Positions 1-62,908 of a stretch of DNA of 64,000 bases are shown one piece after another. Made by a program: the position numbers and the translations under genes. Source of the stretch: a virus. Each line of letters opens with the position of its first letter. Position 1 is the stretch's first letter. The notes beneath the pieces were generated by a model, which did no database searches, was not told the origin of the DNA, and saw only the letters and a list, made by a program, of their open reading frames with translations. The stretch covers positions 1 to 64,000 of IMG/VR virus record IMGVR_UViG_3300046167_000744; one strand, 5' to 3'.

Positions 1-1981
1 TCTTCATAAAGTAACACTCCTGGAAAGCCTGGATAACTGCCTCTTTAGCTCCATCGGCTGAGATACCTTGGAACGGAGTGTTACATCCAACGGTATACTT
101 GCGAAGATATCTAGCTCGGTTACTGACTCGGAATAAGTAGGTGCGTTCAGCTTCGGAGGTAAGCTCATCACCCATAACGTCAGTCTTGAACATCTCTGAG
201 CGCAGGCTGAAATACGTATCCATCTCGGACCATACACGTCTCCACATATCACAGAGCTTCTTGGACTCACCGATACTCATATAGACCTTATAGCCACGAG
301 CGTAATCTACAAAGCTAACGTGACTCAAGCCACCAGCTAAACCAAAGTTGAGGATCTTCGCCAGGGTCCTGAACTTCTTCATGGTCTTATACATCGCATG
401 CTTCTTATCAGCGTATATAGCCTTCGCCTCATCAAAGCTCATATTCGTGTTCTGCTCAATATTGATCATCTGATAACCAGCGTATAGGTGAGGATCGAAG
501 TGCTTATCCTTCCTATACTCTACAGCCAGCATTGACGCAGCGCCCTGAGTATCCCAGTTTTCTTGACCGAGACTACGCATCTCAGCGTTACTGTAATCGT
601 TGATAATGAAGATATGTCCATCAGCAGGGAGGTGATACAATCACGGACAGCGCCACCACGAGGTAGATTCTGCATATTAGGATCACTACTACTAGTGCGA
701 CCTGTGCTGACAAAACCGTTGAGATTGAAGCGGATACGAGCGTCCTGAGATAAGCGTGAGCGTCGTAGGCCCTTAATGAAGGTGTTGATTTCCTTCCATA
801 GTGACTCGCACTCCTGGAACGTGCGGAGCGCATCAGCGAGTAGTGTAAGCTCCTCTTGCTGAGCTTTCTTTAGTGGGACTCTAGTAGTAGGTGTGCGGCC
901 ATGCTCAATACCTTTAGAGATCATACGGAGCAAGTTATCGAGAGGTGCTTTAGCGATGCTGATCTCAGGTTTGTTCTTCTGTAAAGATGCCTCTGTATAG
1001 ATCGAAGGCTCTGTATACTGAAGGATAGAGTAGCAACGGTCAAACACGCACTTGACTCTAGCAGATACAACCTTATGCCCACGCTTATGCTTCTCTACTT
1101 TCTTATAGAATCCGAAGTCACCGATACGAACTAGTATCGCATCATGAGCCTGCATCAAGTGATCGAAAGCAGCTTGGATCTTGGTCTGATCAATCTTAAC
1201 GCCAGTCTTGAAGCTCATATACATAAGGCAGAACTCAGCCACAGCTTGGCGCTGAGCGTCGTCAATGATGGTGCCTTGCGACTTATGATGCCTCATGATA
1301 GGAGCAGATATACGCTCAGCCTTCTTCTGCTGTCTCAGGAATACACCGAGCGCATACTCAGCGTCAGCGATAGCGTAGTCTACAGCAGAGATAGGCCACT
1401 GTTGAATAGGTGTGCCGTGCAACTTATGATAGCTCAGTCGCCATATATCCGCAGCAGGTGAGTTCTTAGTGTTCTTAGCCTGGACCTTCGTAGCGGTCAC
1501 GTCTTTACCGAAGTAGGTATATAGACAACCTGCGAGCGATAGGTAGCTGGTAGGGGACTTTCGTGCCTTTAACTGTTCCACGGATCTCGCCATAGTTATC
1601 GGGACCGCCGACCAGGAGGAGAGCTTCACGGAGCTTAGTGCAGTGCAATCGACCTACACGGTAGGCTCTGAAGATAAGAGCGAATAGAGATGGGTGCATT
1701 ACTGAGCTTGCGATAAAGTCAAACTGAGCGTTGTGAGCGATGATCCAGATAGAGTCGTCCTTAAGAAGCTCTGCGAGATGCACGGCACCGTCTTGAGGAT
1801 CGAGTATATAACCTTTAGATGCTTCACGACGAGGATCATAGAAAGTCATGCATACAACCTGTGGAGCTGTATTGTTCATGATCTTATAAGTCTCAACATC
1901 GAAGCCGATGGGAGTGATGCCTTCAGGCATAGAGTTAGCGTAACTATCAAGTGTGTTACGCATAGTAGGGAAGTTCTGCAT
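1..1981 (-). CDS. polA: Family A DNA polymerase (3'-5' exonuclease + polymerase), runs off the window edge, split by two apparent indels
   Basis: ORF 1505-1981 has Exo I FDVET and Exo II IAHNAQFD. ORF 520-1629 has TGRTSSSDPNMQNLPR. A third frame from ~628 to base 1 reads motif A NDYSNAEMR, motif B RTLAKILNFGLAGG and NTPFQG. Frame breaks at ~1553-1556 (G4) and ~630. Confidence 0.92.
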
Positions 1982-2269: not shown

Positions 2270-2691
2270 TTATCGGATCCGCTGATATGGGAATCTCTTA
2301 CGTATAGAATAATAAAAAATACCTCCCCTTACTACCGACACGTTTAAGCACCTCAAAGACTTTAGGTGACACGTTATAATACTGATACTGCCTACCACCT
2401 TTAAAGCCTACACGTAAGACGTTACGGCTGTGACTATATGCTGCGAAGGTGATATTGCTACTAGTAACATACACTACCTCCAGGTCTTTCTTCCCTGATA
2501 TCTCATCCTTGACGAAGAAACGGGACCGAACCTTCTCCATTCTAGCTCTGTCTGCAGGTCGCATACCTGGTGAGTTAGCTGCAGCCTTTATTCATGTGAG
2601 GCTGCATAGTGTTATGCCCTATCTGAACATTACCTCTAGTCCTAGTATTGTTAGCAGTGTGGCCGAAGCCTCTGCGGTCGCCAATGGCCAT
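2270..2691 (-). CDS. KTSC-domain protein (indel-broken)
   Basis: VTSSNITFAAY..LRVGFKGGRQYQYYNVS...SKGRYF. Removing one T from the T6 run near 2315 restores the typical end YYSIRKRFPY. The likely ATG is at 2691. Confidence 0.8.
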
Positions 2692-2692
2692 A

Positions 2693-3508
2693 TCAGCCTC
2701 CTAATAAATAGTTAATAAAGTCTTGTATCCAGTATAGCACAAAGAGGTAGTCGTAAAGATAATATCGGCCTGTCTCGCTTATTATGAAAGGGCCTAATAG
2801 ATAACACCACGCAGCTGCGGATAATATACCTAGTCTCCAGAAGCACCACTTGATCCAATCCCATAGCTTCCTATCTCTAGCTCTCTTCTTTATGAGCTTG
2901 GGACCGCCTAATCTCTTCACTTTATCACTACTAGGTGGAGGCTGTAATGATTCTACTGAATACCCTATAGCGTGAAGCTCGACAGCCTCACGAACGCCTT
3001 TAAACTTATATAGCCCTACGCAGGCATGCATAGCGTCTTTAGTGTCCCTGGTAGCACGAACCTGGGACATAGCGTCTTTGGTGAGCAGCACCTGACCTGC
3101 TCTACATACGCTCATGGTGCGAGCTGCTATATTCTTGCCCACGCCCTCTAGCTCTATCTGCTTAACTCCAGCGATAACATCTAGTTCGTGTTGATGCACC
3201 TCCGCTACAATATCCCAGTGAATACCTATACGGCAGCCTAGCTTGATCTTATCAGGCACCGTCTTCTGATAAGCGAGCGCAAAAGCGACAGCCGCACTAA
3301 CGGAGTCGAAGGATAATAAGAATCCGTCCGACCTGTCTATCTCTCTACCACCGTGCTTATATATCAAGCTACGAGCGAGCCTATCATGGTATTGAAGCCA
3401 CTTGGCCGCCTTTACTCTGCCGACTTTCTGCACAAACCTGGTGCTGCCTATTAAATCTAGTAGCACGATAGCGAGTCTGCGCTCACGGATCTTAGGTTGC
3501 AGCCTCAT
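2693..3508 (-). CDS. Class III adenylate/guanylate cyclase-domain protein with C-terminal TM segment
   Basis: LAIVLLDLIGST (Asp1), IDRSDGFLLSF (Asp2), RIGIH, KNIAAR, GQVLLT, FKGV; hydrophobic C-terminus. Confidence 0.85.
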   Translation of the reverse strand: MRLQPKIRERRLAIVLLDLIGSTRFVQKVGRVKAAKWLQYHDRLARSLIYKHGGREIDRSDGFLLSFDSVSAAVAFALAYQKTVPDKIKLGCRIGIHWDIVAEVHQHELDVIAGVKQIELEGVGKNIAARTMSVCRAGQVLLTKDAMSQVRATRDTKDAMHACVGLYKFKGVREAVELHAIGYSVESLQPPPSSDKVKRLGGPKLIKKRARDRKLWDWIKWCFWRLGILSAAAWCYLLGPFIISETGRYYLYDYLFVLYWIQDFINYLLGG

Positions 3509-3966
3509 TAGTTGTCTCGTGGAGTCCAGGTGTCTATATCTGGATGCAAGATTACAGCGTTAGGATCTTTACTCCGTATAGGCTTCTCGCCCTGGAACAT
3601 ACTCAGCTTATTAATAACGGCGTTCTGTAGCTCAAATATTTGATCGTCCCTTAATTGGTTATTGATCTGACAATCTCTTAGCCTTGCGATTAAGGCTTGT
3701 CTATCCGCATTGGCGGCTGCGAGCTTATCCTTTAGATCATCTAGCTCACTTGGATCTCTACCTGAAGCTATCGCTAGCATATGGGATATAGAGCCTGTGA
3801 GCATACCGATGATCCCTATCAGTATGTCTCTATTCTCATCTACGATCTTGACGTAAGTCAGGAATATGATGAGAGCTACGATGAGGAGCATGAACGTGAC
3901 AGCTGCCCACCATCCACGCTTAGCCTTTTCAGATTGGCTGAACTGCTTCTGTGTTTGACTCATCAC
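3508..3966 (-). CDS. Two-TM membrane protein with C-terminal coiled coil (holin-like or cyclase partner)
   Basis: Two hydrophobic helices around ENRDILIGIIGMLTGS; TAATG coupling to the cyclase gene. Confidence 0.7.
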   Translation of the reverse strand: MMSQTQKQFSQSEKAKRGWWAAVTFMLLIVALIIFLTYVKIVDENRDILIGIIGMLTGSISHMLAIASGRDPSELDDLKDKLAAANADRQALIARLRDCQINNQLRDDQIFELQNAVINKLSMFQGEKPIRSKDPNAVILHPDIDTWTPRDN

Positions 3967-4089
3967 TCAACTCCTATGGCTAGTATTTGGGACACTATAG
4001 GAGTATATCATGCCAAGTGGTTAATATCTAAACCAGTAACATCTCGATACATAGGCACATCTGTAACAGCTCGTCGTAGTAACAATACA

Positions 4090-4332
4090 TTAGGACCGCT
4101 CCTGACTAGTAGTCTTTCGCTTCTCAAGCTCAGTATAGAGAGCCACCAGGTAGCTGCCCATCTCACCAATCCTGGACTGTAGATACTTCTCGTGGCCTGT
4201 CCCTTCGACAGCCTCATAATACCACTCATAGAAAGGCTCTGAGATCCGCTCTACTACGGCTATGTTTATATTTAGGTCTGTGATCTTAAGATCTTTTGGA
4301 TCGCCTAGTATCTCGATATATGATTCACTCAT
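4090..4332 (-). CDS. Hypothetical protein (80 aa)
   Basis: ATG at 4332 overlaps the upstream stop (ATGA); the longer 4461 start is likely spurious. Confidence 0.55.
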   Translation of the reverse strand: MSESYIEILGDPKDLKITDLNINIAVVERISEPFYEWYYEAVEGTGHEKYLQSRIGEMGSYLVALYTELEKRKTTSQERS

Positions 4333-26418: not shown

Positions 26419-26672
26419 ACGCATTAGCTGGAGGGGCCGCTATCATAGGCTTCCTCTATACCTACATTAAGGACCGTTACGAAAACGGTAAGATCATAGG
26501 TAAGCTAGAAGAGCGTGTAGCTAATCTCGAAAGAGGTAATGAAATACTTGATCAACTCACGAATACGCTCACTGAGACTCGTTTGGCAGTTGCTAGGTTG
26601 GAGCAAAAAGTGGATAGTATCTCTACTTGGGTGCAGCAACAGCAGCAGCAAACACCATTACGCAGAGAATAG
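26400..26672 (+). CDS. Small single-TM coiled-coil protein (holin/XhlA-like)
   Basis: MESITINALAGGAAIIGFLYTY with GGAGG upstream; LAVARLEQKVD. Confidence 0.55.
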   Translation: MESITINALAGGAAIIGFLYTYIKDRYENGKIIGKLEERVANLERGNEILDQLTNTLTETRLAVARLEQKVDSISTWVQQQQQQTPLRRE

Positions 26673-26682
26673 GAGCGGATAT

Positions 26683-27378
26683 ATGGATTCGTCAGTTGAC
26701 TTATATAATGATGGTATTGGAATCGTCACTCTCATTGATTACATGGGAGATGATAAACGAGCGCTACATGCGGCTCGTGTCTCTTTCTTAAGAGACGAAG
26801 ATCTATTAGTAGACGACGGTGAGCGTCTCGATCCTAAAGATAAGAAGTTAGCTAAGTTCTTATTGAAGCATCAGCACACCTCACCATTTGAGCATAGCTC
26901 ACTTAGTTTTAGAATTAAGGTGCCTCTATTCATTCGTAGCCAAATAATGCGTCACCGCACGTTCAGCTATAATGAGGTGAGTCGCAGGTATACAGATTCG
27001 TGTATCGAGTTCCATATACCTAAAGAGCTACGCAAACAGTCTGAGAAGAATCTACAATGCAGCGTAGATGAGGTTGTGTTTAATAATGATAAGCTGGTTA
27101 AGGCTATGCGTAACCAGGCTGATTCTGCATTTAAAACCTATCAGATGTTTCTCGACTGTGGAGTATGCAGAGAGCAGGCTCGTGCAGTCCTACCTCAGAA
27201 TATGTATACGACTTTCTATATGACAGGTAACCTCCTCAACTGGATCAAGTTTTTGAAGTTACGGTTAGACGAACACGCTCAGCCAGAGGTGCAGGAGCTG
27301 GGAGTAGCTATTCTATCTATGATGGAAGAGGTATTCCCTGACACTGTAGCTATCTTGAAGGAGCTAGATATACTATGA
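26683..27378 (+). CDS. thyX: Flavin-dependent thymidylate synthase
   Basis: AARVS, HTSPFEH, RHRTFSYNEVSRRY, EQARAVLP, HAQPE; start at 26683 after AGGAG. Confidence 0.96.
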   Translation: MDSSVDLYNDGIGIVTLIDYMGDDKRALHAARVSFLRDEDLLVDDGERLDPKDKKLAKFLLKHQHTSPFEHSSLSFRIKVPLFIRSQIMRHRTFSYNEVSRRYTDSCIEFHIPKELRKQSEKNLQCSVDEVVFNNDKLVKAMRNQADSAFKTYQMFLDCGVCREQARAVLPQNMYTTFYMTGNLLNWIKFLKLRLDEHAQPEVQELGVAILSMMEEVFPDTVAILKELDIL

Positions 27379-27920
27379 AGATCAAGCACTTAGCTCATCG
27401 CATCAAGACCTGCTTATCACTAGCCTCCCTTTCACCCTGTAAGCGGCGGCAGTTCGGCTGCGTGGTTATAGACCCTATCGCTAATATTATACTTAGTGAG
27501 GGATATAACGGCAGCCTTCGTGGATCGACTCAGTTATGCGGTGGATCTAAGTGTGATCGAGAGGGGTTGAAGCCAGGCACTACTTATGAGGTAGGCTGTG
27601 TCCATGCCGAGCAGAACGCTGTATATAATGCAGCTCGTATCGGTAACTCGCTAGTAGGTTCCTGGTTTATCATAAATGGTGAGCCTTGCAGCTTATGCGC
27701 TAAAGCAATCGTTCAGGTAGGTGCTACAAAGGTTATTTGTGTATCGGGAGTGTTCGGACAACTAGACGGCGTTGAGATACTTCAAGACGCTGGAGTAGAG
27801 GTTGTTTTAGTAGAGCCTGATATGAGTGGTCTAGAGCTAGCTCTGCATCAGCCTATGCGATTACCTCGTGTCCGTGAGCAGAAAATACCTAGCAGTCCCT
27901 TTTCTAAGCAGACTACCTAA
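27375..27920 (+). CDS. dCMP deaminase
   Basis: SPCKRRQFGC, GYNG, HAEQNA, PCSLC. Confidence 0.93.
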   Translation: MKIKHLAHRIKTCLSLASLSPCKRRQFGCVVIDPIANIILSEGYNGSLRGSTQLCGGSKCDREGLKPGTTYEVGCVHAEQNAVYNAARIGNSLVGSWFIINGEPCSLCAKAIVQVGATKVICVSGVFGQLDGVEILQDAGVEVVLVEPDMSGLELALHQPMRLPRVREQKIPSSPFSKQTT

Positions 27921-27978
27921 ACTACTGAGGTTATGGTAGTATACAACTACACCCTATATATCTTAACGAGGCTTTAAC

Positions 27979-29412
27979 ATGAACATTTTTGAACGTATAA
28001 GCGGCTACTTCGGTAAGTCGGTTACTATGGATTCCGCCGAAGAGCTAATCAAGGCACTACCGCCACCAACAGGTCCCATACCAGAGGCTAACGCTGTTCA
28101 GATAAACCCTGTAGACGTAGCTAACGCCTTCATGTTGGAAGATAGCGTTGCAGGGGCCGAGTCGCATAGAGGTCTAGATTACGATCAGTTGCGAGCTATG
28201 TCAGCGGTGCCTATGATAGCCTCTATCATTCAGACCAGGATCAATCAGATCGCTGAGTTTGCTAAACCCTCTCAGGACGGTGCTGATATAGGCTTTCAGG
28301 TTCGACTAAAAGATCGAAGCGAGGTTCCTACTGAGGCGGATCTTGATACTATCCAGGACTTCTATACCTTTATGTTATCGTGCGGTGACAACCGTATAGA
28401 TTATGAGAGCAGCTTCGAGGCTTTCTTGCGTATGCTGATACGGGATAGCCTTATGTTTGACCAGGCCTGCTTTGAAGTTATTAGAAGTAGGAACGGTCAA
28501 GTATCAGGATTTATGAATGTAGACAGCGGCACGATCCGTAGATCTAGAATGTCTGAGGCTGAGAAGAAGACTGGTAAACGTGATCCCGAAGGCACTCACT
28601 TTGTCCAGGTAGTCGGTAATAAGGTCCGAGCTGAGTTTGGAGCGAAGGATTTATGCTTCGGTATACGTAGGCCTAGATCAGAGCTTAAGTATCGAGGATA
28701 CGGCTTTCCTGAGCTGCAAGAATGTATAGGTATTCTCACTAACCTACTTAACGCTGAAGTTTACAACGCTAGTAACTTTACGAATGGTATATCTGTATCG
28801 GGTATAGTCGCAGTTAAGACTAAGATGAATCCGCAGCTGTTCAGAGCCTTCCGTAGAGAGTTCTACTCTATGCTTAGCGGTAGCCATAACTCTAAACGCA
28901 CTCCATTGATACAACTCGATCCCGATAGCAACGAAGACCTCAAGGCTCTTAATCTATCTCAGAGTAACGCTGAGATGGAGTTTGAAAAATGGATGAACTA
29001 TAACATTAAGCAGCTCTGCGCTATCTTCCAGATTGACCCGATGGAAGTCGGTTTTAACTTTGGTGAGACAGGTAAGACCCATAGCTTAAATCAACAAGAT
29101 CCTAGCGCTAAGGTATTGATGAGTAAAGAGAAGGGACTACGGCCTTTATTAAGAGCTGTCGAGTCCTGGATTAATAAATACATCATTACCGAGTTAGATG
29201 ATCGCTTTGAGTTGATATTTACAGGGATGGATATCACTCCACCTGAGCGCCAGCTTGAGATGGACGTGAAGAAAGTGGCTGCATTTATGACCGTAAATGA
29301 GCTGCGAGCCATGTATGATATGGAGCCTCTACCTGGAGGTGATATTATTCTTAACCAGGTCGCCGCTGTCACAATGCCAGGTGCGGCACCTACCTGTAGT
29401 GGAGGAGCCTAA
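27979..29412 (+). CDS. Portal protein (SPO1/Twort-like)
   Basis: IIQTRINQIAEF, LIRDSLMFDQ, GYGFPEL, EMEFEKWMNY, SKEKGLRPLL, MTVNELR. Confidence 0.9.
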   Translation: MNIFERISGYFGKSVTMDSAEELIKALPPPTGPIPEANAVQINPVDVANAFMLEDSVAGAESHRGLDYDQLRAMSAVPMIASIIQTRINQIAEFAKPSQDGADIGFQVRLKDRSEVPTEADLDTIQDFYTFMLSCGDNRIDYESSFEAFLRMLIRDSLMFDQACFEVIRSRNGQVSGFMNVDSGTIRRSRMSEAEKKTGKRDPEGTHFVQVVGNKVRAEFGAKDLCFGIRRPRSELKYRGYGFPELQECIGILTNLLNAEVYNASNFTNGISVSGIVAVKTKMNPQLFRAFRREFYSMLSGSHNSKRTPLIQLDPDSNEDLKALNLSQSNAEMEFEKWMNYNIKQLCAIFQIDPMEVGFNFGETGKTHSLNQQDPSAKVLMSKEKGLRPLLRAVESWINKYIITELDDRFELIFTGMDITPPERQLEMDVKKVAAFMTVNELRAMYDMEPLPGGDIILNQVAAVTMPGAAPTCSGGA

Positions 29413-29414
29413 AG

Positions 29415-30871
29415 ATGCCTAATCAATCAAAGACATTTAATGTGCCACAGGCTGTCCGTGATGCTGCCGAGCGTGGCTTAGAACTGCGTCGTAAACACGG
29501 TCGAGGCTGGTCTTGATGCTAAGCAAGCTAAGAAAGAAGGAGTAGGCTCTGGTGTTCCAGCGAGCCTCTAATCTTATGCAAGGCACCGTCTCTTACAAAA
29601 CTGTTAAGCGTATGTTAGCCTTCTTCAATAGACATAAGGCGTTTAAAGAGCATCATAGCGATAAGACGAGTGCTGCTTGGATCTCACATATGCTATGGGG
29701 CGGCAATCCAGGTTATGCGTGGGCTAAACGCATTGTGAAGCAGGAGGAGAAAGTCGAGAAGGGTAGCTTCCTAGCTGCTCACTACTTCGGTGACGACTTC
29801 CCTGATGAGGAGCTTGAGGAGGAGGCTCAGCCTATCGGTGGTTTTGCGGAGTTACTTAAAGCCGCTCGCAGACCTAAAGACTTTATGGATATCGAGGGCA
29901 GGAAACGTATTAAAGCTAAAGCTGGTGACGAGACTGATGTTGTCGCTAGTGATGTAAAGCCTGTCGATGCTCCTAAAGACGCTATACCTGCTGAAGACGA
30001 GCCGCCTAGTAGTAAAGAACTCGATGAGGCCCTTAAGGAGTTCGGTGAGGAATCTGACGACGAGGTAGAGAAGGGTGTAGTGGTTATAGATCTAGTCGGT
30101 GACGACGATGAGCTACCTGATACAGAGCCAGCGGCCCCTGTGCCTCCACCTCAAGTTCCTATGCCTATACCTCCTGAGCCGATGCTCCAAGAGATAGACT
30201 TCGTGCCTGACGTGATCGTGACTCCCTATGATCAAGTTAAGATGAAGAAGATAGCTAAGAAAGGCCGAGCTATCTATGGCGTTGACAGGGTAGCTAAGAA
30301 GCAGGGACTCTATATATGTAGAGGTCAGTGGGACAATGTTGACCTAGATCTAGTTCAGGGCTATCTATCATTTATAGATGAGCCTGGTATGAAGAAGAAT
30401 GCGCTCGCTGTAGGTGGCGAAGCCATGCTCGCTGTGATTGAAAAGGCTGAGCCTAAAGTCCCTGCTAAATATTTAGAGGGATTGACAGGGCAGGAGCGTC
30501 AGAAGCGTAAGCGTGAGATACAGCGTCGGATGAAGGATAAGCAGAGCTATAAAGAGCTGCCAGGTGATAAGGACGCTAAAACTAAACCTAGTAAGTATAC
30601 CCGTAGTAGCTTCGCAGCTAAGGTTCGTGAAGAGATTAAGAAGCCTGGTAAAGATGAGTTCTTACGGGCGGCAGCTAAAGTGAGTGGTATAAGCAAGACG
30701 ATACTAGAGGAGTGTTATGATCGTGGCTTGAAGGCTTGGTCGTCAGGAGGTCACCGACCAGGGGCCTCACCTGCTGCGTGGGCTAGAGCTAGAGTCTACT
30801 CCCTGGCTACAGGAGGCAAGACACGAAGCACCGCTGATAAAGACTTATGGGAGAGACATAAGAGAGGCTAG
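29415..30871 (+). CDS. Multi-domain head-associated protein with DUF5824-like C-terminus (two indels near 29508 and 29557)
   Basis: VRDAAERGLELRRKHGRG...VKRMLAFFNRH...LWGGNPG domain; C-terminal YDRGLKAWSSGGHRPGASPAAWARARVYS. Confidence 0.7.
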
Positions 30872-30875
30872 TGCG

Positions 30876-31038
30876 ACTAGTGAGCTATCCACTAGTGTTC
30901 TAACTTAAAGCTAGTGGAGCTAGTGGGCTATCCACTAGTGTTCTAACCTAAAGTTAGTGGAGCTACTGGACTATCCACTAGTGTTCTAACATGGGAATTG
31001 CTAGTGGAGCTACTGGACTATCCACTAGTGTCACTAGT
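30876..31038 (-). repeat. Tandem array B: 4 units, inverted relative to array A
   Basis: CTATCCACTAGTGT occurs four times; 30885-30941 is the exact reverse complement of 10807-10863. Confidence 0.95.
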
Positions 31039-31335
31039 AACTTTGGCATTCTAGTGGCAGGGTCTAACCTTATGATATAGTTAGCCTATTCGGGCAGAAT
31101 GCCAAAGTTACCCGAAAACTAAGGATGCCCTGGAGTATATATATATTCTACCCTATTTATATTTATACATACTTATATATATATGTTTCTCTGGAACTCT
31201 TTAAAAATAGGTAACTTTGGCATTTTGGTCTTTTTCCGTATACATATCACAGGCTTAAGCCCTGCCACCTGTCTGCCACTTGCCAAGAAGATTCGTGGTT
31301 AGAACACATTTGTTGCTCACTAGCTAGGTTAGTGG
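31037..31335. other. Origin-like element B
   Basis: GTAACTTTGGCATTCT...AGAATGCCAAAGTTAC inverted pair; core 31100-31222; IHF-like sites ~31066-31078 and 31246-31258; TGCCAAGAAGATTCGTGGTTAGAACAC (31281-31307) identical to 10663-10689. Confidence 0.65.
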
Positions 31336-31404
31336 TATACTAAATTGACTCTAGCACTATGGTAGTCCCTACAGACTACCCACCATCTATTAGTAGGAGG
31401 ATAC

Positions 31405-32154
31405 ATGAAGAAGTTCCTGACGCTTCCTTTTATTAACATCACTACGAGCAGCAAGGCTTGGATCACGTTAGCCGACCTAGCTACATATCTAGAAATAGGT
31501 GAGCAGTCACTGAGGCGCAGGATACTATATTCAGACTCGGCCCCGTTCAGAACTATACGCCCTAAAACCAATGAGCTTATAAAAGCTGCCAGGCGCAGTT
31601 CCTTTACGGGCAGACCTAACCGACAATACTTTGATTTAGATTTTGCTCTGGCGGCCTGTTTCAGTATGAGTCACGAACCAGCTCGCAAGATGCGTGATCA
31701 AGTCGTGTATATAATGAACAACCTGTTTTACGACGGGTTCGTCTCTACTAAGAACTACCATTTAAGTATTGAGGTGCGTAGAGCTATAACAGCCTACGTC
31801 TGCGGTGTGGATCATTATTATAAGATCATTGAGGCTCGATGGGACCCGACAGACCAGTGCCACGGCACGACGCTAGCCCCTCTTGAAGTATCCGTTGAGA
31901 AGCTCGTTATCCCAGACTATTACCTGGAACGTGCCGAGATAAGTAAGGTTAAGGCTATAGATTTAGCGATCCACTTGATATTAACGCATTGTTATGTAGA
32001 AGATAAAGGTTCGGCTTTAGTAGACTTACTTGGTATAATAGGTATCACTGTAGACGCTGGTGTCTGCGGAGCTGAACAAACCTCTAACATAACGGAATGG
32101 GTTAAGGAGCGTTACAACGCTTCCTCCTCTACGATTGGAGATTTAAATGTCTAA
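31405..32154 (+). CDS. RhuM-like putative DNA-binding protein
   Basis: WITLADLATYL...YFDLDFALAACFS...ARKMRDQV...LFYDGFV resembles the RhuM-family pattern; AGGAGG RBS. Confidence 0.5.
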   Translation: MKKFLTLPFINITTSSKAWITLADLATYLEIGEQSLRRRILYSDSAPFRTIRPKTNELIKAARRSSFTGRPNRQYFDLDFALAACFSMSHEPARKMRDQVVYIMNNLFYDGFVSTKNYHLSIEVRRAITAYVCGVDHYYKIIEARWDPTDQCHGTTLAPLEVSVEKLVIPDYYLERAEISKVKAIDLAIHLILTHCYVEDKGSALVDLLGIIGITVDAGVCGAEQTSNITEWVKERYNASSSTIGDLNV

Positions 32155-33172
32155 ACATGTTGACCTGTTTTCGGTATGGACACCGATAGACTTAACCAAA
32201 GCACAGGGTGACCCCAATGAACCGCTTAAAGGACCTATCGCTGGGATTGTTAGCACTGAGGGCATAGACCTTCAGGGCGATACGATTATGCAATCAGGCT
32301 GCGATTGGAATTACTTCTTAAGTAAAGGCTGGCTCAACTATGAGCATCAGCAGGGACCTGAGTATATAGTTGGTTATCCTACCTCCGTGCAGCCTACTGT
32401 GCATGAGGGTAAAAATGCTACTATGATCCAGGGCTATCTTTTATTAGATAGGCCTAGAGCTAAAGAAGTATACGAATCCGCTAAAGCTATTCAAAAAGCT
32501 GGCGATGGACGATCCATCGGATTTAGTGTTGAAGGACAAGTTATACAACGGGATCCTAAAAACCCTAAGAAGATAACGAAGGCTCGTATACTAAATGTAT
32601 CAGTTACTGCCCATCCTGTTAATCCTGATGCTCGACTTGAAGTATTGGCTAGATCTTTGATGGCTTTAGATGATACAACAAATACTAGCGATACGTCCGT
32701 TGTTAATGATAGACTAACACCAGCTACACAAACTGAAGGGTCAACAATGACTGACGATACAGCAACTAAAGGTATGGTAGGCTATCAAGCCGCCGCCAAA
32801 CCAGATCCTGAAGCAGCGCTCTCTGAAATGGCTGCTCAATCACTTGACGGGCAACCCTCATCCGCAACCACTGGTAGTAAAGACGAAGATATGTCGTCTC
32901 TTATGGAAGGCATGATGCGTCGTGTTCTGAAAGAAGAGATGAGCAAGATGATGTCTGACGAAGTGGAAAAGATGATGGATCAGGCCAAGGGCTACTACCA
33001 GGGCGATAAAGTGTCGGACGCTCAAAAGAGTGCAGACTTGCGACCACCTATGGTATCATTACCTCAGATGCAGACTTTACTTGGTAAGGTCTTCCCTCAA
33101 CTTCCTGCTTCTGAGCAACGGTCTATGGCCCGTAAGCTGCTCACTGCAGCTAAAAGTTATCACTCTAACTAA
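32147..33172 (+). CDS. Prohead protease
   Basis: GIVSTEGIDLQGD, GWLNYEH, GFSVEG, VSVTAHPVNPDA. Confidence 0.9.
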   Translation: MSKHVDLFSVWTPIDLTKAQGDPNEPLKGPIAGIVSTEGIDLQGDTIMQSGCDWNYFLSKGWLNYEHQQGPEYIVGYPTSVQPTVHEGKNATMIQGYLLLDRPRAKEVYESAKAIQKAGDGRSIGFSVEGQVIQRDPKNPKKITKARILNVSVTAHPVNPDARLEVLARSLMALDDTTNTSDTSVVNDRLTPATQTEGSTMTDDTATKGMVGYQAAAKPDPEAALSEMAAQSLDGQPSSATTGSKDEDMSSLMEGMMRRVLKEEMSKMMSDEVEKMMDQAKGYYQGDKVSDAQKSADLRPPMVSLPQMQTLLGKVFPQLPASEQRSMARKLLTAAKSYHSN

Positions 33173-33203
33173 CTCTCTCTCATCTCTTTTCTGGAGGATT
33201 ATT

Positions 33204-33737
33204 ATGTCTGACCAAACTGAACAGACTGTTGACCTTAACCGTATCGAAGGGCTACTTGTTGATCTTAACAAAAGCCTTTCTGCTCAGCAGGAAGCTGCCG
33301 CAGATGCCGATGTTGAAACCAACGACAGTGTAGAAATCATCGCTAAAGGTGCTGACGCTATTATTGCTCAGAACAAAACTGCGACTGAGGCTCTCACTAA
33401 AGGCATGGACACTATCATGGAAAAACTTGATAGGCTCGATGCGTTCGTAGCTAAGTTTGCTGAACTCGAAGATAAAATCGACAAAGGACTTGCCGAGATC
33501 GGTGCTATCCCTGACGCTCCTAAAGCTGTCGTCGTTGAAGCTGAGCCAGCTCCTAGCGATGTAGTTGCTGTAGAGGCCCCTGCTACTATTAACAAAGGTC
33601 AAGTTTTAGACCTATGTTTAAATGAGTTGCAAGCAGGCGCTATCGGTGACCGTAAGGTCCAGCTCATGAAGGGTATCTCTCAACTTGACTCTAACTTTAA
33701 CCCTGCCGATGTTGCGGCAGCTCTTAACCTCAAATAA
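33204..33737 (+). CDS. Probable capsid scaffold protein
   Basis: Acidic helical protein between protease and capsid; GGAGG RBS before ATG 33204. Confidence 0.7.
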   Translation: MSDQTEQTVDLNRIEGLLVDLNKSLSAQQEAAADADVETNDSVEIIAKGADAIIAQNKTATEALTKGMDTIMEKLDRLDAFVAKFAELEDKIDKGLAEIGAIPDAPKAVVVEAEPAPSDVVAVEAPATINKGQVLDLCLNELQAGAIGDRKVQLMKGISQLDSNFNPADVAAALNLK

Positions 33738-33751
33738 TAGGAGCGATCACT

Positions 33752-35215
33752 ATGATGATTCCAGGACACAATGAAACGGTTAACGTAGAAGACCTCGTTA
33801 AATTAAACGATGCTTTACGCAAATCTAACGTCGGCTACCAAACTCCAGCTGGCACTGCTGGTGGCGAAAATGGCGCTCTTAGCCCACTCGTCCCACAGAG
33901 CATCGAAGGTAGCCTCTCATCTGCTACTCACACTATGCAAGAGCTTAGCCTCTGGCCTATGATGCCTAAAACCAGCGTCAGCTCAACTCTTCACGAGTAT
34001 GTAGTTGTTAACGATCACGGCTTTGATATCGACCCCTTCATCGGTGAAGGTGGCGGAGCAGAGCAAGACTTCGTAACTAACAACAGCCAGTATGAGCGTA
34101 AGTCTGTCAAGATCAAGTATATGGCAGAGCGTCGTCAAGTTAGCGACGTAGCTAGCCTCGTAGGTATGATCGGTGATAACCGTAACGCTATCGCTGAAGA
34201 GACTATGCGTGGAACTATGGGCTTGATGCGTAAGGTAGAGCGTCAACTCTGGTATGGTAACGAGAGTCTTCAAGAGAAGGGTTTCGATGGTATCCTCAAG
34301 CAAGTTCGTGACGGCGCTCCTCAGAACGTCTTAGATCTTAAGGGATCTGCACCTACTCCATTACTTCTCCAAGAGGCTCTTGGCGAGGTTTACTCAGCTC
34401 CTAACTTCGGTCGTCCTGACTGTATCTACGTCGAGCCTCGTATGCATGCTGAGCTTATTAAGCAAAGCGTCGAGTCTGGTCGTCACGATCAGTTCCAGGT
34501 AGCTCAGAGTGGTAGCCTTACTTTCGGTCAGTCACAACTTAACATCATGGCTCCATACGGCGCTGTTCCAGTTAAGGCTGCTCCATTCTTGCACTTCGCA
34601 AGCCGTCTCCCTGCAAGTGGATTTGGTTCTTTAGCTCCTGCAGCTCCGACCATCACTTCAGCGGTTCCTGGTGCAGAGACTGTTGCTGGTAGCTCACAGT
34701 TCGTCGCTGGCGATCCTACCTACAAATATGCAGTAGTTGCTGTAGGCGACCAAGGTTTCTCAGCTCCTAAGAAGTCAGTCCAAATCAATGTTAACGCTGA
34801 TGAGGAAGTTGTTCTTACTATCGCTGCGACTAACCTCGTTCGTGGTGCTTCACAGGCTCCTCGTTACTACCGCATCTATCGCTCAGGCGCTAACCAAGAC
34901 GGAATCGATTCAAGCTATCGCTTGATCGCTGAAATCCCTTGCGCTGGTGGAGCTGCTGCTACTGTCTTTACCGATCTTGACGACGGTAACAACGGTCAGA
35001 AGTATGGCTGCTCACCGATTCTCTTCGCTCAGCACGACCCACAGGTTATGGAGTTTGTTCGTCTCTTAGACTTCATCCGCCGACCTTTGGCTGAGACCGC
35101 TAGCGTTAAGCCTTTCCTACTTATGCTCTTCGGATCACCAGTAGTTAAGGTTCCTGGCAAGATGTTCTTGATGGACAACGCTGGACTTAGCACTACTGAT
35201 CTAATCCGAGCGTAA
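33752..35215 (+). CDS. Major capsid protein (SPO1/Twort-like) with an Ig-like insertion
   Basis: LRKSNVGY, QSIEGSL, LHEYV, FIGEGG, VKIKYM, LWYGN...FDGI; YYRIYRS insertion. Confidence 0.9.
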   Translation: MMIPGHNETVNVEDLVKLNDALRKSNVGYQTPAGTAGGENGALSPLVPQSIEGSLSSATHTMQELSLWPMMPKTSVSSTLHEYVVVNDHGFDIDPFIGEGGGAEQDFVTNNSQYERKSVKIKYMAERRQVSDVASLVGMIGDNRNAIAEETMRGTMGLMRKVERQLWYGNESLQEKGFDGILKQVRDGAPQNVLDLKGSAPTPLLLQEALGEVYSAPNFGRPDCIYVEPRMHAELIKQSVESGRHDQFQVAQSGSLTFGQSQLNIMAPYGAVPVKAAPFLHFASRLPASGFGSLAPAAPTITSAVPGAETVAGSSQFVAGDPTYKYAVVAVGDQGFSAPKKSVQINVNADEEVVLTIAATNLVRGASQAPRYYRIYRSGANQDGIDSSYRLIAEIPCAGGAAATVFTDLDDGNNGQKYGCSPILFAQHDPQVMEFVRLLDFIRRPLAETASVKPFLLMLFGSPVVKVPGKMFLMDNAGLSTTDLIRA

Positions 35216-60197: not shown

Positions 60198-61076
60198 ATG
60201 TTCGATATACAACATATTGAGGTGCCAGGTAAGCTGATTGACGAGCTACACCGAGAAGGCACAATCAACAGAGAGGCCACTATTGATCCTACAGCGGATG
60301 ATGGTGGCTTTTATCTTTTAACGGCTGGTAAGAAGTCAGCACTAGGTGTGGCTATAGGAGACAGTATACAGCGTGTGGTGGAGAAGGGCATGGATTGGCA
60401 AGGTATTAAGCCTAGAGATAAGGCTCAGCTCTGCATGTTCCACTCTCTATCCAACTTCGATCTCACGGTAGTGCTAGGCGCTGCAGGGACAGGGAAGACC
60501 ACTGTAGCTACAGCCTATGCACTGCATCAGTTCTTTAGGCATGAGAAGAAGATCGTGCTTAGTAAGCCGTCTTGCTTTGTAGGTGGTCGATCCAACGCTA
60601 TCGCAGCGGTCCCTGGTGATGCACGAGAGAAGATAGCTCCATACGTAGAGTCTTTTATGGGTGCGTTGCGCTCCATATTAGGGGATCATGCGGAGCATCA
60701 CCTCTATGAGATGGAGGAGAAAGGCAACTTGATGTTCCAGCCTCTGGAGCTTATCCGAGGTCTGAACTTCGATAACCATATCGTTATCATTGATGAGGCT
60801 CAGAATACCACCGCTCATGAGCTGCTATCGCTTATTAGTAGAGTTGGGCAGCATAGCCAGTGTATAGTGATGGGCGATCCATCTCAGATAGATATGGATA
60901 TCACCTGGCAGGAATCAGGACTGCGTAAGCTATTACAGAGTGACTCGTTCTACGACGACCCTATATGCCAGGCTATCAAACTTAAAGCTCAATACCGTGG
61001 GCCACTCGCTGAGCTGGCTCAGGATGTATTGGACGAGTTACTAGGAGACGAAGATGATATCAATCATTATAAGTAG
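60198..61076 (+). CDS. phoH: PhoH-like ATPase
   Basis: GAAGTGKT, RGLNF, IIDEAQN, SRVG, GDPSQID. Confidence 0.93.
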   Translation: MFDIQHIEVPGKLIDELHREGTINREATIDPTADDGGFYLLTAGKKSALGVAIGDSIQRVVEKGMDWQGIKPRDKAQLCMFHSLSNFDLTVVLGAAGTGKTTVATAYALHQFFRHEKKIVLSKPSCFVGGRSNAIAAVPGDAREKIAPYVESFMGALRSILGDHAEHHLYEMEEKGNLMFQPLELIRGLNFDNHIVIIDEAQNTTAHELLSLISRVGQHSQCIVMGDPSQIDMDITWQESGLRKLLQSDSFYDDPICQAIKLKAQYRGPLAELAQDVLDELLGDEDDINHYK

Positions 61077-61736: not shown

Positions 61737-62025
61737 CGTAGTCCAAGATAGATAGCCCGTCTTCACGGATATCAGGTCGGATCCCTGCGTCGATGTAGTC
61801 TATACCACGAACCACGTTGTAGCTGATCCACTCAATGGCTGTCTCGTGTTCAAACCCATGATCGTCCAGGCTCTTCATATCTTCGCACTCGTGGAAGTGC
61901 ATCACTAGCTTATTATAATCATAGATGATACGCCCGTCTTCAACAGCTACGACCGCACAGCCACAACCGTCTATCTGAACAGACTCATCTTCATAGGTGT
62001 ATTCTTTTGGTAACTCACAGCTCAT
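61723..62025 (-). CDS. Hypothetical protein
   Basis: IIYDYNKLV...AIEWISYNV, a pattern common in phage small proteins. Confidence 0.7.
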   Translation of the reverse strand: MSCELPKEYTYEDESVQIDGCGCAVVAVEDGRIIYDYNKLVMHFHECEDMKSLDDHGFEHETAIEWISYNVVRGIDYIDAGIRPDIREDGLSILDYDEEE

Positions 62026-62908
62026 CGTCTAAAGCTCCAAATATAGTGTCCCACCAGGGCGCTATATCATATTTACGTTCGTTAACATGGTGATGCCCGA
62101 AGATAGTGAAGTCACTAGTATCTTTATAGACCTCATGATCGTCAGGGCAAACGAAATCCCAGCCTAGAGCCTCAAATAGATCCTCGATAAAGGCGTTGGT
62201 AGCGTCAGCTATGCGAGGGTCTACTGTTACGAGCGCTTTAGGGCCTCTACCAGTAGTGTTATCTAGCTTCTCTACGTTGTAGCCGTTCGTATCATAGTGT
62301 TCCTTCCACTGACGTAGAGGAGACTGACAAACATCAACACCGATAGAGTGATCGTTGACCCAACCGCCATGCCATGCATTTAGGCCCATATCTAAGACCT
62401 GGTAGACGACAGGTTTACCATCTACTAGCCCGATAAGGAAGTGACTCGATACTTGGCGAGCGGTGCTGGCGAATACATTGAAGCAGTGCTTAGGGTTGAG
62501 ACCGCCCCAATGCATGCAGACAGCACGAGGTAGGGTAGATCTGCGGCTAAAGTTACCGAACTTATGTAGGTCCAAGCCTGTAGGCTCATCAAAGGTGATC
62601 AGCTCATATAGATCAGACTTAGGTAGGTGGATACGGCAGCCGTTCTGAACAATATACTCTTCAGTGATAGGCTGATACTTGCTAAGGATAGCTTTGTAGG
62701 TTTGATTACCTAGCTTCCCGTCGCATTCCCACTCATCAAAACCCAACTCTCGCTGAACCTTGACAACCTCCCAGGCAAACGCCTCGGAGTGTGAAGGAGA
62801 GGCTAGTAGTGGTAACTGGTCTAGCACCGCTTGAGGGAAGGCGTGGTTAGCTCGCTTATTATATTTGCAAGCCTTACCTAGATTAAACTTATCAACAACT
62901 TCAGACAT
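62015..62908 (-). CDS. N-acetylmuramoyl-L-alanine amidase (endolysin) with PG-binding segment
   Basis: DGKLGNQT; VCMHW, VSSHFLI, AWHGG..NDHSIGVD, IFGH...KYD. Confidence 0.85.
   Translation of the reverse strand: MSEVVDKFNLGKACKYNKRANHAFPQAVLDQLPLLASPSHSEAFAWEVVKVQRELGFDEWECDGKLGNQTYKAILSKYQPITEEYIVQNGCRIHLPKSDLYELITFDEPTGLDLHKFGNFSRRSTLPRAVCMHWGGLNPKHCFNVFASTARQVSSHFLIGLVDGKPVVYQVLDMGLNAWHGGWVNDHSIGVDVCQSPLRQWKEHYDTNGYNVEKLDNTTGRGPKALVTVDPRIADATNAFIEDLFEALGWDFVCPDDHEVYKDTSDFTIFGHHHVNERKYDIAPWWDTIFGALDDEL

Follow-up and report, generated by a model that had tools for sequence, protein, structure and literature searches.

Does a two-gene locus in a marine phage encode a signalling enzyme of the phage's own, and if so, what is the membrane protein beside it for? 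The question is raised by a 64,000-nucleotide stretch of viral DNA (hereafter the window), the first 64 kb of the 74,372-bp IMG/VR virus record IMGVR_UViG_3300046167_000744, whose completeness is estimated at 46% and whose DNA is also present in contigs from several marine and seawater studies; no RNA data set was listed as containing it. On its minus strand the window carries a small gene for a class III nucleotide cyclase homologue overlapped by a gene for a protein with two transmembrane segments (2-TM). We report that the two genes are always found together in related viral loci, that both are under strong purifying selection, and that the cyclase has the predicted fold and the catalytic residues of an active enzyme. 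We propose, with a probability of roughly one half, that they form a phage-restricted two-subunit membrane cyclase in which the 2-TM partner serves as scaffold or regulator. The elements of the locus are as follows.

2693-3508, minus strand: cyclase gene, 271 amino acids (aa); a minimal cyclase-homology domain of class III is followed by a basic linker and by a TM anchor at the C terminus.
3508-3963, minus strand: 2-TM partner gene, 151 aa from ATG 3963 (152 aa if from GTG 3966).
3506-3510, minus strand: stop/start overlap TAATG from the 2-TM gene into the cyclase gene, predicted from the sequence to couple their translation.

For the 2-TM gene, the most likely start is ATG 3963 rather than GTG 3966, because a GGAG lies 7 nucleotides (nt) 5' of the former. 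No Shine-Dalgarno sequence was found before the cyclase ATG, and the TAATG from which a first-pass annotation of the locus had read translational coupling is in place.

Fold, active site and anchor of the cyclase

A model of the cyclase built with AlphaFold2 (AF2) from 24 homologues (predicted local distance difference test score, pLDDT, 82.6) has the cyclase-homology fold. Structure searches with Foldseek (E 1e-11) and VIA both returned Rv1900c as the top match, with Z 22.8 and a root-mean-square deviation (rmsd) of 2.2 Å over 171 residues; Ma1120 scored Z 22.1, and many adenylyl and guanylyl cyclases scored Z >19. The fold is the same as that of the Rv1900c/LipJ cyclase-homology domain (1ybt, 1ybu) and of Ma1120 (4wp8, 5d15), with an rmsd of about 2 Å over 160-171 residues at 22-27% identity. 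Rv1900c was also the best solved relative by sequence (E 6e-9 with a single sequence, 1e-12 with a profile), and the LipJ cyclase domain matched the phage protein at E 2e-12. Three parts of the protein can be distinguished.

2909-3493, minus strand: catalytic domain, residues ~6-200, with D18, D61, D58-R59, E119, N126, R130 and K170 and an LQPP..DKVKR extension specific to the subfamily.
2858-2923, minus strand: basic juxtamembrane linker, residues 196-217, with 10 Lys/Arg in 22 and the conserved motif KVKRLGGPK.IKKRARDR.
2777-2857, minus strand: C-terminal TM helix, residues ~218-244, hydropathy peak 1.75, model helix 203-243.

Active-site positions were assigned by profile alignments to Rv1900c, Ma1120 and GRESAG4, and residue conservation was counted over 166 distinct cyclase homologues. 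The open reading frames (ORFs) and the motifs LLDLIGST, IDRSDG, AGVKQIELEG, KNIAAR and FKGV listed by the first-pass annotation are all present in the 271-aa product, and its assignment of both metal-binding Asp residues and the transition-state Asn/Arg was borne out. D18 and D61 align with the metal-binding Asp pair, N126 and R130 with the transition-state Asn and Arg, and K170 takes the phosphate-Lys position; in Rv1900c and Ma1120 the metal Asp pair and the catalytic Arg align likewise with the phage protein. Conservation is near complete: none of the 166 homologues departs from D58, R59, D61, K116, E119, K125, N126 or R130, and Asp at position 18 and Lys at position 170 are each kept in 165, the exception at position 18 being a gap. 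By these comparisons the protein is a class III cyclase homologue with the fold and catalytic residues of an active cyclase.

The pocket expected to read the base departs from known cyclases. As the first-pass annotation had noticed, the usual purine-specifying K-x-x-G-D is replaced: after a one-residue deletion D58, with R59 beside it, falls at the substrate-Lys position, and E119 falls at the adenine-Asp position. The canonical purine pair (Lys/Asp for ATP, Glu/Cys-type for GTP) is thus missing. Because Asp58-Arg59/Glu119 breaks both the adenine and the guanine rule, the base of the product cannot be predicted from the alignments, in keeping with the uncertainty voiced earlier. Rv1900c shares with the phage cyclase a non-canonical substrate-Lys position. 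Compared with the mycobacterial domains, however, the phage cyclase is one residue shorter ahead of the second metal Asp and has Asp for Lys and Glu for Asp, and it adds to them the LQPP..DKVKR extension, the basic linker, the TM anchor and a dedicated membrane partner.

A pocket that matches no characterised specificity pair might also mean that the domain does not synthesise a cyclic nucleoside monophosphate (cNMP), and instead depletes nucleoside triphosphates, makes some other nucleotide product or acts as a non-catalytic nucleotide-binding module. The gene pair does often lie near thymidylate synthase, dCMP deaminase or pyrF/pyrE-like genes. Moreover, the nearest cellular relatives (loci L044-L097) keep both metal Asp residues, the Arg and the D-R/E pocket and lack the catalytic Asn, in whose place all 61 sequences have Pro, Ala or Ser. 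On the other hand, the phage family has kept its canonical catalytic residues (Asn126, for one, in 166 of 166 homologues), and this would be hard to explain for a domain with another function. Non-canonical residues are in any case compatible with activity: the closest solved structure, Rv1900c, has them and is nevertheless an active adenylyl cyclase. We consider non-cNMP chemistry improbable and a 3',5'-cNMP the probable product.

The catalytic domain starts at residue ~6, and there is consequently no sensory or regulatory domain in cis. The membrane anchor named in the first-pass annotation corresponds to a single C-terminal hydrophobic segment, the TM helix at ~218-244, which is followed by a variable tail of ~27 aa. 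Because of the basic linker and the positive-inside rule, the cyclase is predicted to be tail-anchored and to have a cytoplasmic catalytic domain; the tail would then be extracytoplasmic, and it contains an invariant Arg, R248.

The 2-TM partner

The partner is divided into two structural parts (residues in the 152-aa numbering).

3766-3915, minus strand: TM hairpin, residues 18-67, hydropathy peaks 2.71 and 1.96, model helices 5-39 and 46-67.
3598-3753, minus strand: long helix/coiled coil, predicted to be cytoplasmic, residues 72-123, with the conserved motif ADR.ALIARLRDAQI, followed by a short tail.

The short outside loop of the hairpin carries an invariant N45-R46-D47, and TM2 an invariant polar motif, TGSIS, followed by SGRDP. 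Each protein is thus predicted to expose invariant charged residues on the outside, the partner its N45-R46-D47 and the cyclase its R248, which we count in favor of a two-subunit enzyme. No Pfam, PHROG, NCBIfam or PADLOC family was matched by the partner at threshold, nor was any holin family, and its only PHROG match was phrog_9990 (function unassigned, E 0.005). Sub-threshold coiled-coil Pfam matches were obtained for its relatives. Foldseek found no PDB match for the partner fold, and all structure matches in the ESM Atlas had TM scores <0.5; the Atlas entry of the partner starts at residue 2, and its nearest clusters are 100% viral. Domain scans and the model revealed no cyclic-nucleotide-binding domain (CNBD), SAVED, beta-barrel or other nucleotide- or ligand-binding domain in the partner, and no cNMP_binding domain was found in the partner or its 27 homologues.

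The main rival to a two-subunit enzyme is a signal/effector pair, in which cNMP would open the 2-TM protein or oligomerize it into a pore, as in the TM effectors of Pycsar, Pucsar or CBASS. Such a pair could be used for superinfection exclusion, for killing the host in a compromised infection or for timing lysis. A cyclase with a small TM protein is indeed the architecture of PycsarTM and PucsarTM, polar motifs like TGSIS are common in pore-lining helices, and the interval between terminase and portal genes, where most relatives of the pair lie, is a typical site for accessory genes. Further, 25 of 28 partner homologues gave matches to SLATT, a 2-TM effector model (best E 0.0011). These matches, however, fall below the Pfam cut-off (16.3 bits for the window partner against a gathering score of 26.5), and AbrB, an unrelated membrane model, is matched equally often (26 of 28), so that the likeness to SLATT decides neither way. 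SLATT-type proteins are associated with SMODS or SLOG nucleotide enzymes, whereas the invariant neighbor here is a class III cyclase domain. The partner also lacks the nucleotide-binding domains listed above, PADLOC detected neither gene, and the known Pyc/Puc TM effectors consist of three TM helices plus a CNBD. Finally, anchoring the cyclase in the membrane would be needless in a design based on a diffusible signal. A signal/effector pair therefore seems unlikely to us, although it is the alternative that we take most seriously.

A profile search of 1.8 billion representatives returned the core partner family and a tail of unnamed 110-127-aa proteins with the same layout, for which there is no Pfam family. 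The distant members P0283, P0287, P0289, P0290, P0293, P0296 and P0303 have two TM segments and a coiled coil and share an N-x-D loop, a G..V.S.S motif in TM2, G(R/K)(D/N)P.E and LQ..VI.KLS.

Linkage of the two genes and selection

Related loci were pooled from IMG/VR (42) and from JGI/ENA metagenomes (46), and linkage was counted in the ~70 viral and metagenomic loci with enough flanking sequence. In every one of them a cyclase and a partner homologue were adjacent and on the same strand. Conservation of the gene pair in relatives, which the first-pass annotation had proposed as a check, was thus found throughout. The annotation had also placed the 2-TM gene upstream of the cyclase gene; this is true of the window, where the two hydrophobic segments were recovered as well, but not of most relatives, in which the partner lies downstream. 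The commonest order is cyclase to partner with a 4-nt ATGA overlap. The reverse order, with TAATG in the window, was found in the window, its syntenic relative L098 and loci L099-L101, and in the cyclase tree it is limited to one well-supported clade of six sequences, so that one or two rearrangements would suffice to account for both orders. The pair occurs in at least four genomic contexts.

Window and L098: replication module, flanked by DNA polymerase A and by a gene that matches DUF669 weakly and below threshold.
Most loci: between the gene that follows the small terminase (probable large terminase, no Pfam hit) and a Mu-like portal gene.
Other loci: adjoining a dCMP deaminase gene.
Other loci: adjoining a pyrF/pyrE-like gene.

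At the portal-side loci, thymidylate synthase and DNA methylase genes lie a few kb away. In L100, the gene preceding the pair (187-1311, plus strand) encodes a fused orotidine-5'-phosphate decarboxylase and phosphoribosyltransferase (pyrF/pyrE-like), an unusual pyrimidine-synthesis gene for a phage.

Strong purifying selection on both genes is indicated by median dN/dS values of 0.07 (cyclase) and 0.08 (partner). With these values and hundreds of homologues for each gene, the observation is far beyond chance. The distance matrices of the two proteins were correlated (r 0.82), and none of 2000 permutations reached as high a value; this points to inheritance as a unit, not to physical binding. 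Complex prediction from one-to-one cyclase and partner alignments returned a score of 0.00, which speaks neither for nor against binding.

The same linkage bears on the possibility that the two genes have independent functions and merely share a mobile cassette, with the 2-TM protein acting as a holin, antiholin or Imm-like exclusion protein and the cyclase as an auxiliary enzyme that raises host cAMP or cGMP. Holin or exclusion functions are common among small 2-TM phage proteins, and adenylate cyclases lacking a partner have been reported from the curli clusters of pelagiphages (PMC9599517). Adjacency nevertheless survives a swap of gene order and at least four contexts, with stop/start overlaps in both orders, and the partner matches no holin family. 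In relatives the pair sits between packaging and portal genes, and in the window it is 58 kb from the one lysis-like gene seen there, an amidase-like candidate at 62015-62908 (minus strand). The first-pass annotation had named as the outcome that would count against it an ordinary holin, unlinked in other genomes; what we found is a gene linked to the cyclase in every locus with enough flank and with no adjoining lysis gene. Two independent functions are, in our judgment, a poor explanation of these data.

Distribution and cellular relatives

Clustered at 90% identity, homologues in the protein database amount to at least 698 cyclase clusters and 1,574 partner clusters. Many of these come from Tara and other seawater samples, on contigs of up to 137-361 kb, and the module has moved between phages represented by contigs of tens to hundreds of kb. 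The cultured-phage database INPHARED held no DNA or protein match for either gene, and the nearest match there to the major capsid protein of the record is only 28% identical and belongs to SPO1/SP-10-like phages. On this basis the phage appears to have no cultured relative.

Cellular genomes were surveyed by a pattern scan of one genome per species, covering 185,579 bacterial and archaeal species. No cyclase homologue above ~45% identity was found among them; the scan returned only N-terminal domains, 30-42% identical, of long proteins. These closest cellular relatives of the catalytic domain are of two types, the Xanthomonadales TIGR04510 proteins and the Rubrivivax cyclase-STAND-TPR (cyclase-ATPase-TPR) proteins. 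In the Xanthomonadales type the catalytic domain is followed, as in the phage cyclase, by a basic linker and a TM helix, but then come ~600 aa with TPR. Both types differ from the phage protein in their length of 840-1100 aa and their TPR or ATPase regions. No partner homologue was found near the bacterial TIGR04510-like genes. As far as these surveys reach, the module is restricted to viral and metagenomic contigs and is phage-borne. Several Rubrivivax metagenome-assembled genomes hold many paralogues of the cyclase-ATPase-TPR relatives.

Comparison with named systems

The first-pass annotation had pointed to a resemblance to TIGR04510, the Xanthomonadales family of putative peptide modification system cyclases, without its long C-terminal region, and the resemblance is real: cyclase residues 13-199 match model positions 7-204 of 814 at E 6.8e-33. 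The catalytic signature of TIGR04510 (IDRSDG, GAK..E.EG, ..AAR) is common to the phage family and the 61 bacterial relatives, except for Asn126. Membership in the family was rejected on several grounds. The match scores 114.2 bits against a curated cut-off of 400, with a true member at 700.8 bits. The long TPR C-terminal region is missing, as the cyclase ends ~27 residues past its TM helix and members have ~840 aa. Finally, genes for SagB-like peptide-maturation dehydrogenases adjoin the cyclase in true members, and none lies beside the window cyclase; in the bacterial locus L071, TIGR04511 genes adjoin.

A Pycsar-like pair had also been suggested by the first-pass annotation. The likeness to Pycsar and Pucsar lies in the two-gene unit, the standalone class III-type cyclase with a small membrane protein, and the unusual nucleotide pocket. 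These systems, however, are bacterial and have a soluble cyclase, and their effectors combine a CNBD with three TM helices (or with TIR), whereas the phage module has a membrane-anchored cyclase and a partner with two TM segments, a coiled coil and no CNBD. As a claim of membership the suggestion did not hold up: no PADLOC family was matched by either protein at E up to 1, no CNBD effector was found in the partner, its 27 homologues or the 74-kb record, and the module occurs in phages rather than cellular genomes. Pycsar cyclases were also missing from the top 50 structural matches, which does not count as evidence.

Receptor-type membrane cyclases of class III, such as Rv1625c and the mammalian adenylyl cyclases, resemble the module in being membrane-bound with cytoplasmic catalytic domains that must dimerize. 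In those enzymes an N-terminal multi-TM bundle and a coiled-coil transducer precede the catalytic domain in a single chain. In the phage module, by contrast, the catalytic domain comes first, a single TM helix follows at the C terminus, and the coiled coil resides on the separate 2-TM protein. A precedent for cyclases in marine phages is provided by the adenylate cyclase genes in the auxiliary curli (type VIII secretion system, T8SS) clusters of pelagiphages (PMC9599517). There the cyclase sits with CsgG, CsgF, FecR and a histidine kinase, and no 2-TM partner is described (PMC9599517). No CsgG, the marker of curli clusters, was found in the record analyzed here.

Surrounding genes and quality of the record

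Within the window, the neighbors of the cyclase are the 2-TM protein, a KTSC protein and the gene with the weak DUF669 match mentioned above. Two flanking features of the operon were noted.

4002-4030, minus strand: promoter-like site, TAGATA and a TG-extended TATACT separated by 17 nt, ~36 nt upstream of the 2-TM start; consensus match only.
2298-2689, minus strand: KTSC-domain gene (KTSC E 8.5e-13), directly downstream of the cyclase gene (TGAtATG).

A second promoter-like site ending in TATACT lies at 4132-4160 (minus strand), also upstream of the 2-TM gene. The TATACT-ending sites are similar to a putative TGGTATACT promoter noted elsewhere in the genome and may represent a phage promoter motif. 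The AGGAGG of the KTSC gene falls within the 3' end of the cyclase gene. Only in the lineage of the window and L098 does KTSC make a third gene in the operon, and it was not found beside the pair in the other contexts.

In the window the KTSC gene is broken into ORFs of 38 and 88 aa, as opposed to a single ORF of ~125 aa in L098. Contigs of three public runs (X1, X2 and X4) have one base fewer at window position 2585-2587 and another at 2314. Because these contigs do not contain the extra bases and the gene is intact in L098, the window record probably has 1-nt insertion errors at these places, outside the cyclase and 2-TM genes. Both genes of the pair are free of insertions and deletions (indels) where they are covered by the contigs of the three runs. 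The DNA polymerase A gene at 2-1981 (minus strand) is likewise split over three overlapping frames (ORFs 1505-1981, 520-1629 and 2-640), which could reflect further indel errors in the record or a genuinely split polymerase. Farther along the window, the regions 26539-35215 and 60198-61076 (both plus strand) encode thymidylate synthase, dCMP deaminase, portal, head maturation protease, major head protein and a PhoH-like protein. No tRNA gene and no Phage_lysozyme domain were found in the record.

A model for the module

How might the two proteins work together? Class III cyclases form their active sites as head-to-tail dimers. Because a sensor-free class III domain must dimerize and a coiled coil is here supplied in trans, the partner is a plausible dimerization scaffold; this fits better than a receptor role because the partner consists of a TM hairpin and a coiled coil without a ligand-binding domain. 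In the model that we favor, translational coupling would yield the cyclase and its partner in roughly equal amounts. The 271-aa sensor-free enzyme would be held in the inner membrane by its tail, its catalytic domain lying in the cytoplasm, and the 151-aa hairpin protein would direct its coiled coil to the same side. Assembly would involve the TM helices and juxtamembrane parts of both, and the partner would scaffold or gate dimerization by bringing two catalytic domains together. The enzyme would then make a 3',5'-cNMP of uncertain base, and the signal would act on receptors of the host, or less likely of the phage, during infection.

Several observations weigh against this model. The contact between cyclase and partner is putative, and conserved adjacency would also be expected of a signal/effector pair. 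No fused cyclase-partner protein was found among longer proteins, although this is weak evidence. The specificity pocket is unlike that of every characterized cyclase, which leaves room for a product other than a cNMP. The window protein reaches only 13.6 bits (E 0.05) against Pfam PF00211, for which the cut-off is 21.9, although a precomputed PF00211 match is carried by many homologues that are 55-68% identical. Lastly, no cNMP_binding receptor was found in the 74-kb record, which is itself ~46% complete.

The fold and the chemistry of the cyclase are already known. What appears to be new is the combination of a tail-anchored cyclase with a 2-TM coiled-coil protein as its obligate partner, its restriction to phages and its wide spread in marine viromes. 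The searchable literature was found to contain no description of a phage cyclase with a 2-TM partner and no mention of TIGR04510; phage-borne adenylate cyclases have been noted once, in the pelagiphage curli clusters (PMC9599517).

A bolder proposal, to which we would give only low odds, is that unrelated marine phage lineages carry their own two-subunit membrane cyclase for a cyclic mononucleotide with a base other than adenine (such as cGMP, cCMP or cUMP), and thus a second messenger owned by the phage. In most prior work on such signals it is bacteria that make them (CBASS, Pycsar, Pucsar, type III CRISPR, Panoptes) and phages that destroy or sequester them. Here the synthase is phage-borne, with a conserved catalytic site, an uncharacterized base pocket and an obligate membrane partner of no known family, all within a small module of ~1.3 kb and two genes. 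The IDRSDG/E.EG pocket is common to the uncharacterized bacterial TIGR04510 and cyclase-STAND families, and the identity of the phage product would inform those families as well. If the proposal is true, the messenger may serve host takeover, superinfection signaling at the membrane, or the pre-empting or jamming of cNMP immunity of the Pycsar/Pucsar type. It would then represent cyclic-nucleotide signaling on the side of the phage, as opposed to the known phage strategy of degrading or sponging the signals of the host.

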